Under the pieces are notes generated by a model. That model made no database searches. It saw only the letters and a list, made by a program, of their open reading frames with translations, and was not told the origin of the DNA. A stretch of 30,628 bases of DNA from Ignavibacteria bacterium (GTDB lineage Bacteria > Bacteroidota > Ignavibacteria > Tepidaquicellales > OLB5), in contig DASXTZ010000018.1 of NCBI GenBank assembly GCA_036505135.1, positions 1 to 30,628 on the forward strand. Reading direction: 5' to 3'. The position numbers and the translations under genes were made by a program. Of the stretch, positions 146-5,691 are shown in pieces (the stretch's first letter is position 1; each line of letters opens with the position of its first letter).

Positions 146-2002
146 TTAAAGCGGGATTGCTTCACTTACTCTTCCAATTTTTTCTTCTATTGCTTCTTTT
201 TCCCTTTGTGCGCGAAGCTGCCTTGTATATAAATTGTAATATATTCCTTTTGCTTTCATCAGTTCATAATGATTGCCATCTTCAAGTATCTTTCCCTTTT
301 TTATCACAAGAATTCTATCGCAATGCTTTATTGTGGATAGCCTGTGTGCAATAATAATAGATGTTCTGCCTTCCATTATTCCGACTATGCCGTGCTGGAT
401 CCGCGCTTCAGTTAAGGTATCAACCGATGAAGTAGCCTCGTCCATTATAAATATTCGGGGATCAGCAAGGATAGCGCGGGCAAACGAAACAAGCTGTTTT
501 TCACCCATTGAAAGATTTTCGCCGCCTTCGCCTACCTGTTCATCAAGTCTTGTTATGAAATCATCCGCCCCGGCTATTTTTAAGGCATTTATTACTTCCA
601 TATCCTCTGCCTCTTCCCTGCCATATTTAATATTTTCCTTAACAGTACCTGAAAACAAATGCGGAGTCTGCAGCACAACACCCAGCTGGCTCCTTAAGCT
701 AAACATCGTCTTATCTTTGTAATCAATTCCGTCAATTTTAATTCTTCCGCCGGTTGGTTCATAAAAACGGCAGATAAGATTAATAATTGTTGATTTACCG
801 CTTCCGGTTTCTCCAACAAGTGCAATACTCTCTCCGGCCTTAATATCCAGATTCATGTTTTCTATAACGGGCTTGCCCTGCTCATACTGAAATGATATGT
901 TTTCAAATTCTATATTCCCATCGATTCTTTCGTAATCTTCTGCGCCATATTTATCTACTATTTGAGCTTTCGTATCTACTAGTGAAAATATTCTCTCCCC
1001 TGCCGAGATGCTATTCTGTGCTTGTGAATAGAATCTTGATATATCAAGTATGGGCTCGAATATCATAGTAGCATACCCAAAAAATGCGGCAAGCGTTCCG
1101 ACCGTAATCTCGGCAGGTATTGCAACAGCCATAGAACCGCCATAATACACAACAAATGCAGCAGCAGTTGAGCCGCCGAATATTATAAGCGGCATAAAGA
1201 TTGCAGAAAAATATGCCGATTTATATGAAGAAATCCTCATTTTTTCACTTAGAATGTCGAAATCTTCACTTACCCGTTTCTCCTGGACAAGGCTTTTGTT
1301 AACCTCAACTCCGTTAATGTGCTCATTAAACCTTGCAGTAATTTCGCTGTTATATTTTCTTGCCTCTCGTGAATATTTTAATATCAGCATTCTTAATTTT
1401 ATAGATACCAGCATCAATACAGGAATAGCTGTGGTTACAATAATTGCAAGCTTCCAGTTGTAAATAAACATTACAGTTACGCAGAATATTATCATGCCAA
1501 CTCCCCAGATTATTTCTATCATGTTCCATGAGATGAGCTCTGTAACTTTTATTGTGTCTGAAGATATCCTTGAAAGCAGCCATCCAACAGCAGACCTGTC
1601 ATAAAACGAAAACGAAAGTTCCTGCAGTTTTATAAACAGCTGCTGTCTTATATCATACATTACATATTCCTGTATCCTGCCTGCAAAATTAATAAAGCCA
1701 AATACTCCTCCGGCCAGAGTTAATCCCAATCCCAGGAAAATTAATCCATAGTATATAACTGCGGTTTGGTCAACATTGTATGTTCCCGTAGTTTTGAGTG
1801 ACTCGACAGCGGGAACAATAATATTGTCGATCAGGCTTTTCCATACAAGCGGGTAAATTGCTTCAATAAGAGCAACAAGCAATACGAAGCCGGTAAAGCC
1901 CGCTACCCACTTTGGATATTTAAAGCTGTATGTTAACAGTCTCCTTAAAAAAGGATACAACGACCCCTTAGTTTTAAATTGCTTATCCTTTAATTTTGAC
2001 AT
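146..2002 (-). CDS. Heterodimeric ABC exporter subunit (TMD-NBD), chain with consensus Walker B and degenerate signature (TM288/BmrD-like)
   Basis: N-terminal TM helices; Walker A GETGSGKST; degenerate signature LSMGEKQ; Walker B IFIMDE; H-switch IAHR. Confidence 0.93.
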   Translation of the reverse strand: MSKLKDKQFKTKGSLYPFLRRLLTYSFKYPKWVAGFTGFVLLVALIEAIYPLVWKSLIDNIIVPAVESLKTTGTYNVDQTAVIYYGLIFLGLGLTLAGGVFGFINFAGRIQEYVMYDIRQQLFIKLQELSFSFYDRSAVGWLLSRISSDTIKVTELISWNMIEIIWGVGMIIFCVTVMFIYNWKLAIIVTTAIPVLMLVSIKLRMLILKYSREARKYNSEITARFNEHINGVEVNKSLVQEKRVSEDFDILSEKMRISSYKSAYFSAIFMPLIIFGGSTAAAFVVYYGGSMAVAIPAEITVGTLAAFFGYATMIFEPILDISRFYSQAQNSISAGERIFSLVDTKAQIVDKYGAEDYERIDGNIEFENISFQYEQGKPVIENMNLDIKAGESIALVGETGSGKSTIINLICRFYEPTGGRIKIDGIDYKDKTMFSLRSQLGVVLQTPHLFSGTVKENIKYGREEAEDMEVINALKIAGADDFITRLDEQVGEGGENLSMGEKQLVSFARAILADPRIFIMDEATSSVDTLTEARIQHGIVGIMEGRTSIIIAHRLSTIKHCDRILVIKKGKILEDGNHYELMKAKGIYYNLYTRQLRAQREKEAIEEKIGRVSEAIPL

Positions 2003-2080
2003 TCCTTTCCTTTCTCTCTTTTTTTTGTCTTTTCACTTTTCATTCTTCATGTTTTTCGTTACATTTTACATTTCAAGTGA

Positions 2081-3277
2081 TCAATCTTTATATGGATCAT
2101 ACACATCTTCTCCCGCCATTGCCACACCTATGGGTTTCAATCTGCTAAGTATCTTAATTGTATTTTGATGATAATTTAGAACCTCGTTCAAATTTTTATA
2201 CACTTCAGGTGCTTCATCTGCGCCGCCGCCGCGAAGCTCGATACCCTTTTGTTTTAATTCTTCTTTCACTCTTTTAAAATTGATCTCACCCCTTGTGACA
2301 TGTATCATTTTTCCATGCTTCCACTTTCTTTTACCGGCAGCTTTGGTTCTGGACATTACTCTTCCCGCTCCATGAACTGTTGAATACAGTGAGTTCTTCG
2401 ATTCGTCCGAATCCACACCTTCTATTATGTAAGATGTCCCGCCCATTGTTGAGCCTATAAACGACTGCTGGCCGGGGAACGCAGGCGTGCAGCCTTTCCT
2501 TACTACCCAGTATTTTCTCCCGAAGTGTTCTTCAAGCCAGGCAAAATTATGATGATTATGAACTTCAAAAATGGATTTTGCACCGAGTATTTCAAGAACT
2601 TTTTTAACCACCAGGTCGCGTCCCGCATAGGCATATTCACCCGCAAGCTTCATTGCCTGTATATAATCCTTCCCAAGCTCGCTTTTTATATCAAGCAAAG
2701 TTGGCGGCGCGTCCATACTGTTAGCATCACGGGGCTTCTCTTCAAATTTAAGTCCCTTTGCAAGTGCCAGGAAACCCATTGCCGTTTTGTGCCCGAACCC
2801 GCGTGAGCCGAAGTGTACTCCAACCCATAAAACGTCATCTTTATCTTCAAAAAGATCAACGTAGTGATTGCCGCTGCCTACAGTCCCAAGCTGCCCGCTT
2901 GCCAGCTTAGCCATATTCTTTTGCGGTTTAAAATCGGTTCCCGCTATTTCATCAATTACAGGATGGTCAGCAGGCTCATTGTTTACTCTGCCAATGCCAA
3001 AGCTAATTCTGCGCGCTATCTCATCCATTATTCTTTTCTTATCTATATCTTTAGCCATTATATCCGTTTTAACCGCCTTGTTGCCGCATGCAATATCGAA
3101 ACCAACACCGGATGGACTGATGTAATCTTTATAAGCAACGGCTCCGCCAATTGGCATGCTGTAGCCAACGTGGTTATCCGCACAAAGAACGGCATAATCA
3201 CCATCTGTTGAACAGCGCTCAATTTGAGCTACCGCCCTTTCGTCAACTTCCCCGAATATTTTGATCTTTGATTTCAT
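2081..3277 (-). CDS. rtcB: RtcB family RNA ligase (RNA repair)
   Basis: All RtcB catalytic motifs are present: ADNHVGYSMPIGG, VGFDIACG, GTVGSGNH, HFGSRG, HHN, RKG, HGAGRVMSR, DEAPEVYK. Confidence 0.95.
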   Translation of the reverse strand: MKSKIKIFGEVDERAVAQIERCSTDGDYAVLCADNHVGYSMPIGGAVAYKDYISPSGVGFDIACGNKAVKTDIMAKDIDKKRIMDEIARRISFGIGRVNNEPADHPVIDEIAGTDFKPQKNMAKLASGQLGTVGSGNHYVDLFEDKDDVLWVGVHFGSRGFGHKTAMGFLALAKGLKFEEKPRDANSMDAPPTLLDIKSELGKDYIQAMKLAGEYAYAGRDLVVKKVLEILGAKSIFEVHNHHNFAWLEEHFGRKYWVVRKGCTPAFPGQQSFIGSTMGGTSYIIEGVDSDESKNSLYSTVHGAGRVMSRTKAAGKRKWKHGKMIHVTRGEINFKRVKEELKQKGIELRGGGADEAPEVYKNLNEVLNYHQNTIKILSRLKPIGVAMAGEDVYDPYKD

Positions 3278-3280
3278 TAT

Positions 3281-3311
3281 TAACCCTGAACCCTTATGGG
3301 ACGAAGGTCTC
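3281..3311 (+). repeat. REP-like element, family A (CCCTGA-core-CGAAGGNTCTC)
   Basis: TAACCCTGAACCCTTATGGGACGAAGGTCTC fills most of the 39-nt ABC/rtcB spacer; arms match the reverse complement of 21395-21420. Confidence 0.7.
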
Positions 3312-3316
3312 TTTTT

Positions 3317-5221
3317 TTAATTTGCGTAAATACCTTTACTTTTCATTCCTCTTTTCAAGTTTGACGCTTCACCTTTCACATTCATTACATCATTTTCGAT
3401 TTCTTCTTCAATTGATACCTGGATATCAAATATCTTCTTATAGAACCCGTCATTGCTTATTAGCTCCTCATGCGAACCCTGTTCTATAACCTTTCCCTTA
3501 TCAAGTACTATTATTCTATCGCAATCCTGCACGGAAGTTATCCTATGAGCAATAACAATGGTGGTTTTTCCATCAGTTATATTGCGCAATGCCTTCTGAA
3601 TTTCAAATTCGGTTTCCGTATCAACCGATGAGGTTGAGTCATCAAGAACAAGAACATCCGGATCTTTCAGCAAAGTCCGAGCCAGTGTTACACGCTGTTT
3701 CTGGCCGCCTGAGAGCGTTACCCCTTTTTCCCCAACAACCGTATCGTAAGCATTGGGGAAAATATCCATAATAATATCATGAATATTGGCAACCTTAGCA
3801 GACTCAACCACCTCATCTATATGCGTATCAGGGTCTGCGTAAGCAATATTCTCCATTATCGAAGTAGAGAACAAGAATGGCTTTTGCAGGACAACTCCAA
3901 TTCTACTTCTCAGGTATCCGCGCGAAAATTCGTTAATATTTTTTCCATCTATTCTTATTTCTCCTGAGTCCGGCTGGTAGAACCTCATCAGCAAAGAAAT
4001 AATTGTTGATTTACCCGAACCTGTGGGGCCAAGCAGCGCAATCTTCTCGCCCGGATTTATCTTAAAACTAATTCCGCTTAAGACATGATTTTTTTCTTGT
4101 TCAGAATATTTGAAATACACATTATCGAATTCAATGCTTCCCGCAAGCCCTCTGCCCCTGTTACCAAAACCCGAGTAATTTTCCTGCTCTGTATTTAAAA
4201 TGGAATAAATCCTTTGTATTGCAACAGAGGTCATACCCATTTCGCTTACAAGCTGGGCTAACCTTCTCATTGGCCAGGTAACAAAAGACGCATATGAAAA
4301 GAACGCAACATATTCGCCCACAGTAATACTGTTACTTACTACAAAATAAACTCCTGCAAAGATTGAAATAGCAAGCTGAAGATAAACCATAACATCAGAG
4401 CCCGGCCAGTAAATCGAATGAAGCTTCATCAGTCTTATGCCCCATCTGCGTTTTAGCTCGTTCTGGCTTGTAAACCTGGTGATCTCATATTTTTCCTTGG
4501 CAAATGCCTTAACAACCCTGATACCGGATAGATTTTCCTGAACCAAAGCCGTCAGCTTATCCTGTTCAGCCTCATGTTTTGTCCATATTTCTCCTTCTTT
4601 TTTGAAGAAGTAAAACGAACCCAGCAAAACCAGCGGAACGGTGCCTATTGCAATCAGCGCATAAGTAGAATTTATCATCAGCATCATTATTGAAGCGCCT
4701 GTGAAAATTGAAGTCAGCCTGACAGTTTCAATGACCTGCATGTATGCAAACTTGCGGACAGTTTCTACATCACCTGTGCAGCGCTGAATAAGTTCACCCG
4801 TGGGGGTTTTACTGTAATAATCCATCGGCAAATGCTGCAGGTGCAGAAACAGCCTGTCTCGGAGCTTCTTTATGGCCTTTTCAGTTGCAGATGCGCTTAT
4901 GGCGCTTGATGAAAAACCTGTTGCTCCTCTTAGCAAAGAAATAGAAACAAACATAGCGCCTAATGATAACAATATTATCCCAGCATTTTCTATTTTGATT
5001 TGCGGCAATAAGCTGTATAAAAAGCGCGTGATAAAATCATCACCGGCAATCTGGGTATTCCCTTTTGCAACGAAGAAGGAAATAATTTTATCAACCGTTA
5101 TCTGCAGTACCCTTGGCTCAAGCATCCTGAATCCCATAGATACAACAAGCAGTATTGCCGCGCCGGAATACTGGTATTTCCACTTATCTAATATTTCAAA
5201 TAATTTGTAAAAACTCTTCAT
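3317..5221 (-). CDS. Heterodimeric ABC exporter subunit (TMD-NBD), chain with degenerate Walker B (TM287/BmrC-like)
   Basis: Walker A GPTGSGKST; consensus signature LSGGQKQR; Walker B VLVLDD (catalytic Glu replaced by Asp). Start reassigned from 5266 to ATG 5221 (MKSFYKLF) because the extra 15 codons are mostly a palindromic repeat. Confidence 0.92.
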   Translation of the reverse strand: MKSFYKLFEILDKWKYQYSGAAILLVVSMGFRMLEPRVLQITVDKIISFFVAKGNTQIAGDDFITRFLYSLLPQIKIENAGIILLSLGAMFVSISLLRGATGFSSSAISASATEKAIKKLRDRLFLHLQHLPMDYYSKTPTGELIQRCTGDVETVRKFAYMQVIETVRLTSIFTGASIMMLMINSTYALIAIGTVPLVLLGSFYFFKKEGEIWTKHEAEQDKLTALVQENLSGIRVVKAFAKEKYEITRFTSQNELKRRWGIRLMKLHSIYWPGSDVMVYLQLAISIFAGVYFVVSNSITVGEYVAFFSYASFVTWPMRRLAQLVSEMGMTSVAIQRIYSILNTEQENYSGFGNRGRGLAGSIEFDNVYFKYSEQEKNHVLSGISFKINPGEKIALLGPTGSGKSTIISLLMRFYQPDSGEIRIDGKNINEFSRGYLRSRIGVVLQKPFLFSTSIMENIAYADPDTHIDEVVESAKVANIHDIIMDIFPNAYDTVVGEKGVTLSGGQKQRVTLARTLLKDPDVLVLDDSTSSVDTETEFEIQKALRNITDGKTTIVIAHRITSVQDCDRIIVLDKGKVIEQGSHEELISNDGFYKKIFDIQVSIEEEIENDVMNVKGEASNLKRGMKSKGIYAN

Positions 5222-5229
5222 ATTTTTAA

Positions 5230-5264
5230 TTGCGAATCCTGCTTTAGCAGGATGAAGCAATCCC
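5230..5264 (+). repeat. REP-like element, family B with an 8-bp-stem hairpin core
   Basis: TTGCGA + ATCCTGCT-TT-AGCAGGAT + GAAGCAATCCC. Confidence 0.75.
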
Positions 5265-5288
5265 ATTTAATTTATTATTTTACTGCAT

Positions 5289-5323
5289 AAAAAAACCGCG
5301 AACCCTTTACGTCCGCGGTTTTT
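5289..5323 (-). terminator. Intrinsic terminator (attenuator) between the leader ORF and the ABC operon
   Basis: Minus-strand RNA AAAAACCGCGGA-CGUAAAGGG-UUCGCGGUUUUUUU: GC-rich stem followed by U7. Confidence 0.85.
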
Positions 5324-5382
5324 AAAACTTATTTGTATATAAATTGGTGTTATCTCATATACCCCCGTTTAAACCACGGACG
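5310..5382 (-). promoter_or_regulatory. Antiterminator pairing between the leader coding sequence and the terminator 5' arm
   Basis: RNA CGUCCGUGGUUU (5382-5371) is complementary to AAACCGCGGACG (5321-5310): 12 of 12 pairs including one G-U wobble. Confidence 0.75.
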
Positions 5383-5454
5383 GACTACTCCCATGACTGG
5401 AATTGTAAGAACTGTGTCAATGTGCCCGTTATATTTTATGATAGAATTGTTCAC
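5350..5454 (-). CDS. Putative 34-aa leader (attenuator) peptide MNNSIIKYNGHIDTVLTIPVMGVVRPWFKRGYMR
   Basis: Not in the ORF track. GTG start with AAGGA 7 nt upstream, 35 codons ending in TAA, placed between a clear promoter and a terminator. Confidence 0.7.
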   Translation of the reverse strand: MNNSIIKYNGHIDTVLTIPVMGVVRPWFKRGYMR

Positions 5455-5494
5455 CTTATAATCCTTTTTTATATGTCTGTGATTTAACGTTTTA

Positions 5495-5525
5495 CAAAAT
5501 TAAGAAAAAATAGCCGAAGTGTCAA
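5495..5525 (-). promoter_or_regulatory. Housekeeping promoter for the leader/ABC/rtcB transcript
   Basis: TTGACA (5525-5520), 17-nt spacer, TAATTTTG (5502-5495). Confidence 0.75.
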
Positions 5526-5580: not shown

Positions 5581-5691
5581 TCAAAAAAATATCTTCTTTG
5601 GATAGGTTACTTTTATATATTTCCATTTATAGTGAGATAAAACTCTAAGCGGTATAAGGATAAAAAAAAAGAATAAAGCAAATGCTTCCAT
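5581..5691 (-). CDS. Putative 36-aa small hydrophobic protein MEAFALFFFFILIPLRVLSHYKWKYIKVTYPKKIFF
   Basis: Not in the ORF track. AGGAGG 4 nt before the ATG; hydrophobic N-terminal stretch then a basic tail; candidate promoter upstream. Confidence 0.5.
   Translation of the reverse strand: MEAFALFFFFILIPLRVLSHYKWKYIKVTYPKKIFF

Follow-up and report, generated by a model that had tools for sequence, protein, structure and literature searches.

A candidate ribosome-sensing attenuator ahead of a heterodimeric ABC exporter operon in Ignavibacteria

The stretch of DNA analysed here (30,628 nt, referred to below as the window) comes from an uncultured soil Ignavibacteria bacterium and encodes, on its minus strand, a leader RNA of ∼205 nt ahead of an operon for a heterodimeric ABC exporter. 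On balance, this leader is probably a ribosome-sensing (leader-peptide) transcription attenuator that controls the exporter operon i.e. a switch that is off by default and is turned on by a ribosome that stalls early in a short leader ORF. In this bacterium the switch would most likely let the pump genes, and the rtcB gene that lies between them, be transcribed only when ribosomes slow. The features expected of an attenuator were found together: an ORF under selection, a terminator ahead of a gene that has no other promoter, and a covarying antiterminator that overlaps the ORF. This type of control is known; the leader family is undescribed, and it adds a well-supported, unannotated regulatory RNA family to the Ignavibacteria, a lineage related to the Bacteroidota.

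The leader RNA and its competing helices

The elements of the leader are listed in Table 1. A preliminary description of this DNA had proposed a promoter (TTGACA-17-TAATTTTG), a Shine-Dalgarno-led ORF for 34 amino acids, a terminator with a U7 tail and a 12-nt stretch in the codons V-R-P-W-F complementary to the 5′ arm of that terminator. Each of these elements was found in place: the promoter occupies 5525-5495, the ORF (5454-5350) is preceded by AAGGA, the terminator (5323-5289) is also present in the minimum-energy fold of the leader, and nucleotides 5382-5371 are complementary to 5321-5310 with one G-U pair.

Table 1. Coordinates of the leader elements and of the regulated operon in the window.
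Feature	Position	Strand	Details
Promoter	5495-5525	−	TTGACA at 5525-5520, 17-nt spacer, TAATTTTG at 5502-5495
Region 1	5475-5489	−	First bases of the transcript; 5′ strand of helix P1 (anti-antiterminator); predicted with RNAfold
Shine-Dalgarno-like purine tract	5462-5466	−	AAGGA, 7 nt before the GTG start
Leader ORF	5350-5454	−	34 codons; GTG at 5454, TAA stop at 5352-5350
Region 2 (shared strand)	5366-5382	−	In codons V-R-P-W-F-K-R; pairs with region 1 or region 3
Apical hairpin of antiterminator	5335-5362	−	5362-5354 pairs with 5343-5335; stop codon in loop
Region 3	5328-5325 and 5321-5311	−	3′ strand of antiterminator and 5′ arm of terminator
Terminator	5′ arm 5323-5311, loop 5310-5304, 3′ arm 5303-5291	−	3′ arm is region 4
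U7 tract	5295-5289	−	Terminator end at 5289
Spacer, terminator to exporter ATG		−	67 nt; 5221-5281 mostly a multi-copy palindromic repeat
Regulated operon	146-5221	−	Exporter half 1 5221-3317, rtcB 3277-2081, exporter half 2 2002-146

The transcript probably starts near position 5490. The promoter layout (TTGACA or TTGCa, 17 nt, TAnnTTTG) recurs at nearly all of the orthologous loci, where it lies 202-289 nt before the end of the terminator. In the window and in ∼45 relatives this promoter joins a sigma-70-like −35 element to a Bacteroidota-type TAnnTTTG box across a 17-nt spacer, which suggests that Ignavibacteria promoters combine sigma-70-like and Bacteroidota-type elements. The relatives also have a purine tract comparable to that of the window, 17-25 nt ahead of the ATG start of their leader ORFs. 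Genome-wide, Shine-Dalgarno use is weak (the G+C content is 37%). Just upstream of the leader promoter lies a separate ORF of 36 codons (5581-5691, minus strand), whose ATG is preceded at a distance of 5 nt by a strong AGGAGG, in contrast with the otherwise sparse Shine-Dalgarno use of the genome; the N-terminus of its product is hydrophobic and the C-terminus basic.

Folding of the leader (5490-5280), which the preliminary description had proposed as a check, gave an energy of −47.7 kcal/mol (z = −3.3 against shuffles; RNAfold). The minimum-energy fold contained the terminator together with helix P1, which is formed by 5489-5475 with 5381-5366. In the antiterminator fold, nucleotides 5381-5367 pair instead with 5328-5325 and 5321-5311, giving a long hairpin that is capped by the stop-codon hairpin. 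Of the earlier claim that two hairpins exclude each other, the competition between terminator and antiterminator therefore stands, whereas the number of helices does not: three compete, and P1 had been missed. The stop-codon hairpin (5362-5354/5343-5335) had been overlooked as well, leaving the original list of elements incomplete. A consensus terminator scan of the window did not return the terminator, likely because its A-run pairs with the U-run, which extends the stem and leaves too few T residues after it.

Every structure described here is a prediction, and the relatives used in the comparisons are not independent samples. RNAalifold, applied to a MAFFT alignment of the leaders, recovered the terminator alone because the other helices were misaligned between clades, and the pairings were therefore tested sequence by sequence. 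In this test the antiterminator duplex had a mean energy of −17.6 kcal/mol (z = −3.9) and the P1 duplex a mean energy of −14.9 kcal/mol (z = −2.3), and a helix equivalent to P1 was predicted in nearly all of the relatives. The P1 strands vary by clade and fit their own partners better than those of other clades, the mean for regions 1 and 2 of the same leader being −16.6 kcal/mol compared with −12.2 kcal/mol for cross-clade pairs. For the antiterminator, 86.8% of the cells were paired in a MAFFT alignment that had not been fitted to any structure, against 26-49% when the partner strand was slid, and at one antiterminator pair in this alignment 11 sequences have AU and 10 have GC. Two terminator pairs are changed on both sides, and a hairpin followed by a tract of U6-U10 is present in every leader. 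The comparison among relatives that had been proposed at the outset thus found the ORF, antiterminator, terminator and promoter conserved and covarying in all of the orthologous loci examined.

Regions 2, 3 and 4 co-vary as a set. At one set of positions one family has G, C, G where the other has A, U, A or A, U, G; at another, four genomes have C, G, C in place of the U, A, U of most leaders. Genome G008 shows a third three-strand change (C-to-U, G-to-A, C-to-U), in which the Pro codon itself has been lost. Since each of these changes runs through all three strands, antiterminator and terminator have both been preserved. A helix encloses the stop codon in 33/34 leaders, and its stem sequence differs between clades. 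The 5′ arm of this apical hairpin holds a G-rich motif (5359-5366; GGAGG in most leaders and GGGGG in the window) that lies 3-4 codons before the stop. The motif is conserved as nucleotides, being read as R-R, W-R or R-G, yet its conservation exceeds what the stem requires, and the conserved GGAGG is unaccounted for by the attenuator model.

We compared the energies of the alternative states. The full-length minimum-energy fold contained the terminator in 34/34 leaders and P1 in 27/34. When the leaders were folded as they would be before region 4 is transcribed, minimum energy chose the antiterminator in 29 of the 34. Little energy separates the P1 state (−38.8 kcal/mol) from the antiterminator state (−37.7 kcal/mol), so that timing would decide which of them forms; as modeled, the leader is a balanced three-way switch whose outcome is set by timing. 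No conserved alternative partner was found that could take up region 1 while the antiterminator is formed.

The leader ORF, its distribution and the operon it precedes

The ORF was open in all 47 leaders (47/47), at lengths of 32-43 codons, and starts with ATG everywhere but in the window, where the start is GTG. Across 34 leaders (1230 codons) there were no stops in the frame of the ORF and 91 and 91 in the other two frames. Differences in length between clades keep the frame, e.g. one genus has two extra codons and another has seven. Within clades the variable columns number 22, 23 and 38 at codon positions 1, 2 and 3 respectively, a weak third-position excess. As judged from these sequence comparisons, the open frame is under selection. 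The geometry of the leader is also held within narrow bounds: the start codon is 23-28 codons (mostly 25) from the shared strand, the shared strand is 8-16 codons from the stop codon, and the stop codon is 29-36 nt from the terminator 5′ arm.

The peptide itself is poorly conserved overall, with partial conservation of I-x-x-Y near the N-terminus and R-R near the C-terminus, and it has no Pfam match. P-W-F was considered as a conserved peptide motif and rejected, as one genus has P-[ALQTV]-V-S in its place, a single genome P-C-S and G008 L-S-A, with the RNA pairing intact. Because the peptide varies here and the pairing is kept, the constraint at the shared strand acts on the RNA rather than on the peptide. 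None of the leader peptides contains a run of codons for one amino acid, as an amino-acid-sensing attenuator would. Stalling at rare codons was rejected as well, since CGG alone is rare (3.1 per 1000 codons) and is present once, next to AGG. Reading of the sequences also led us to discard a mini-ORF in the sister family (f2) that would start from a GTG inside an AAGGTGA motif, as it was inconsistent across genomes.

We searched 61 genomes i.e. 60 relatives and the window's own genome. An ortholog of the exporter is present in 44/61, and when all of the upstream regions were read the leader was found directly upstream of it in 44/44. In a DNA search of the 60 relatives the 3′ half of the leader was 71-77% identical in two families, and all of the matches were directly upstream of the orthologous exporter. 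This DNA search did not detect the leader in the 17 genomes without the exporter; a covariance model gave no match in the five of these 17 that it covered, and no leader match was obtained in the five genera that lack the exporter. The leader is single-copy in each genome that matches the covariance model. In total, the whole arrangement was found in 46 other genomes.

The covariance model (R1) describes the 3′ half of the leader and misses diverged members, e.g. G006 and G008, so the true range may be wider than its matches suggest. Applied to 150 further genomes of the class, it matched 10/10 of those sampled in the window's family (f1) and one in f2, and it gave no convincing match outside f1 and this single f2 genome in the 150-genome sample. 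Matches in other Bacteroidota were rejected, as their scores were carried by the terminator alone. A pattern scan of genome contigs with the terminator motif gave at least four true Ignavibacteria records, the matches listed being mostly unrelated terminators. Those four public records have the same leader and an exporter half 1 that is 62-74% identical; all are labelled as Ignavibacteria or Ignavibacteriaceae metagenome-assembled genomes, and one is the same contig as G026. The sequencing runs that hold the leader sequence were soil-metagenome DNA only, with no RNA run among the matches listed.

Downstream of the leader, both exporter halves have the Pfam domains ABC_membrane and ABC_tran, and the gene between them matches RtcB. 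The closest solved bacterial relatives of the exporter are TM287/288 and TmrAB; it has no peptidase domain (Pfam), and no NCBIfam equivalog reaches the cut-off for it. A type IX secretion sorting domain is encoded nearby (Pfam), a sign of Bacteroidota in the broad sense. One genome, G028, carries four exporter copies on separate contigs (C9, C217, C333 and C431) and has a contamination figure of 6%; these copies may be a strain mix rather than true paralogues.

The spacer between the terminator and the exporter ATG was described earlier as 67 nt long and in part a repeat, and this was the case: 5281-5221 is a repeat of which the window's genome and relatives contain several further copies. Among the relatives the spacer ranges from 13 to 253 nt and, when long, holds unrelated GC-rich palindromic repeats. 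In many of them the terminator ends just 13-37 nt ahead of the exporter ATG, which leaves no room for a separate exporter promoter and agrees with the original view that such a promoter is unlikely.

The name ABC-rtcB operon, under which this locus was first described, is correct for the window and does not extend to the family as a general trait. An rtcB gene separates the exporter halves in five genera only, from two families: the window's own family (the window, G005, G006 and G008) and the sister family (G048). With the query used here rtcB was not found in 49/61 genomes, among them most of the other exporter carriers and 21/21 sampled from the largest genus. The leader is primarily an exporter leader, and its link with rtcB is recurrent, not general.

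Proposed mechanism and alternative readings

We infer that the leader ORF is translated, that a ribosome inside the P1-closed loop prevents P1 from closing, and that an early stall leads to read-through. With no ribosome on the leader, P1 would form first and the terminator after it, and transcription would stop at 5289; as the strands of P1 are made first, an untranslated leader should fold as P1 plus terminator. A ribosome moving at normal speed would cover the shared strand while the terminator is made. It would then stand at the stop codon in the antiterminator loop, with P1 reclosing behind it, and transcription would again stop; this reclosure is possible because the stop codon lies at least 8 codons past the shared strand. 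A ribosome held in the first ∼20 codons would instead sit inside the P1-closed loop, keeping P1 open and the shared strand free. In this case the antiterminator would form once the terminator 5′ arm emerges, and the polymerase would read into the exporter genes and, here, rtcB. The inducer would be anything that slows early elongation, e.g. ribosome-targeting antibiotics, ribotoxins or a shortage of tRNA.

We placed a ribosome at successive positions on 34 leaders, under the rule that no base pair may span it, so that the failure of P1 to close around a ribosome is built into the result. With the P-site at codons 0 to ∼20 the antiterminator was predicted, a ribosome on the next ∼10 codons masked the shared strand, and with the ribosome on the last 2-4 codons P1 re-formed in most of the leaders (not in five). 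Plain thermodynamics with the spanning rule removed ended in P1 plus terminator at all ribosome positions. In most leaders the 5′ strand of P1 is 12-52 nt upstream of the start codon, which means that a stalled ribosome cannot mask it directly, and the P1 loop, at roughly 95-115 nt, would in principle be large enough to enclose one ribosome. In the predicted fold of G008 the 5′ strand of P1 overlaps the start codon and codons 1-7, and an early ribosome would there mask this strand directly, as in classic attenuators. With one competing helix enclosing the first two thirds of the ORF and the other enclosing the stop codon, the layout is a clean system for testing whether a ribosome in a loop decides between RNA folds.

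A rather unlikely alternative is that the switch runs in the opposite direction. Translation of the leader would open P1, and fast passage followed by release would give read-through, as the local antiterminator would form before the long-range P1 returns; slow or absent translation would give termination. The operon would then report translational capacity, not stress. Such a switch is consistent with P1 holding the shared strand whenever no ribosome has passed, with the antiterminator being favoured in 29/34 leaders once region 3 is out, and with an ORF that ends far enough past the shared strand (at least 8 codons) to leave it free when the ribosome is at the stop. It is also consistent with the drop in bmrB read-through when leader translation is lost (PMC4191407). 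However, a ribosome at the stop codon in the apical loop should block the antiterminator and leave P1 free to re-form, there is no obvious reason for efficient translation to switch on an exporter and rtcB, and known exporter leaders respond to stalling (PMC4191407).

It is improbable that the leader encodes a specific arrest peptide, in which a small molecule in the exit tunnel (a drug or pump substrate) stalls the ribosome at a defined codon and so sets the fold. The partial conservation of I-x-x-Y and R-R could reflect a specific nascent-chain effect. The constant distance from start to shared strand (23-28 codons), the I-x-x-Y that recurs around residues 5-9, a first Pro 11-12 residues ahead of the second, and the R-R near the C-terminus all fit this reading. 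Against it, P-W-F has been replaced in one genus and in G008 with the RNA pairing kept, the third-position excess is weak, and a stall on P-W-F would mask the shared strand and lead to termination. In addition, the first Pro and the V-D/V-G residues appear, as we read the sequences and folds, to be encoded by opposite arms of a small RNA hairpin.

A more elaborate version of the early-stall switch, which we consider quite improbable, is that the leader detects when the translation machinery has been damaged and couples this to RNA repair. Ribosomes that slow because of drugs, or because tRNAs or rRNA have been cleaved by ribotoxins, would stall in the P1-closed loop. If this were true, the pump could expel the agent and, in the five genera concerned, the RNA ligase RtcB could reseal the cut RNA; through the GGAGG and the purine tract ahead of the start codon, the switch might also monitor the condition of the 16S rRNA 3′ end. 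That rtcB has repeatedly been inserted in the regulated operon hints at a connection between translation stress and RNA repair.

The leader could also be read as a switch that works independently of the ribosome, with a metabolite, protein or small RNA binding the P1-closed multiloop or region 1 and the ORF being incidental. A closing helix whose 3′ strand overlaps the antiterminator, as in P1, is the standard layout of a riboswitch. This reading is nevertheless very improbable, given an ORF that is open in every leader, free of stops against 91 and 91 in the other frames and kept in frame across indels, a multiloop interior that is poorly conserved in sequence, and the lack of an Rfam family match. 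That the ORF is simply the gene for an exported or modified peptide handled by the exporter, with the hairpin as its terminator, is scarcely credible: small peptide genes often precede ABC exporters, but this exporter has no peptidase domain, the peptide is poorly conserved, the 13-37 nt spacer leaves no promoter room so that the exporter is transcribed by read-through alone, and the alternative pairings covary.

Comparison with known attenuators

In the trpL and hisL attenuators four strands pair as 1:2, 2:3 and 3:4; transcription terminates both when the leader is untranslated and when it is fully translated, and an early stall gives read-through. The four-strand logic that we propose for the Ignavibacteria leader is the same. 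Unlike trpL and hisL, the leader lacks a run of regulatory codons, most members have strand 1 outside the ORF, and the downstream genes encode an exporter rather than a biosynthetic pathway. No Rfam family reaches its gathering threshold with the leader, the best being His_leader (RF00514) at 23.9 bits against a threshold of 49. Our search of the full-text literature returned nothing on leader peptides or attenuation in Ignavibacteria, nor on the exporter-rtcB arrangement. As predicted here the layout is unusual, in that the anti-antiterminator begins in the 5′ untranslated region and the stop codon is in the antiterminator loop.

The closest parallel in working is the bmrB-bmrCD system of Bacillus subtilis, in which lincomycin, erythromycin and chloramphenicol induce only if the leader is translated (Reilman et al. 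2014, PMC4191407); the comparison with bmrBCD drawn in the preliminary description agrees with that paper. Both systems have a short ORF and an intrinsic terminator ahead of a heterodimeric ABC exporter, and in both a terminator, an antiterminator and an anti-antiterminator are predicted (PMC4191407). The bmrB ORF is translated, and its read-through is translation-dependent and raised by ribosome-targeting antibiotics (PMC4191407), whereas the Ignavibacteria leader is known from its sequence. The two also differ in layout: the bmrB terminator lies inside a 53-codon ORF, whereas the Ignavibacteria ORF ends 29-36 nt before the terminator, in the antiterminator loop, and the 5′ strand of its anti-antiterminator is in the 5′ untranslated region. 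By eye there is no sequence resemblance between the two leaders, which come from different phyla. With its terminator outside the ORF and a peptide that has no Pfam match, the Ignavibacteria leader is bmrB-like in its working and not a member of the bmrB family. A translation-sensing leader placed ahead of a heterodimeric ABC exporter, in the style of bmrBCD, would thus have arisen far from the Firmicutes.
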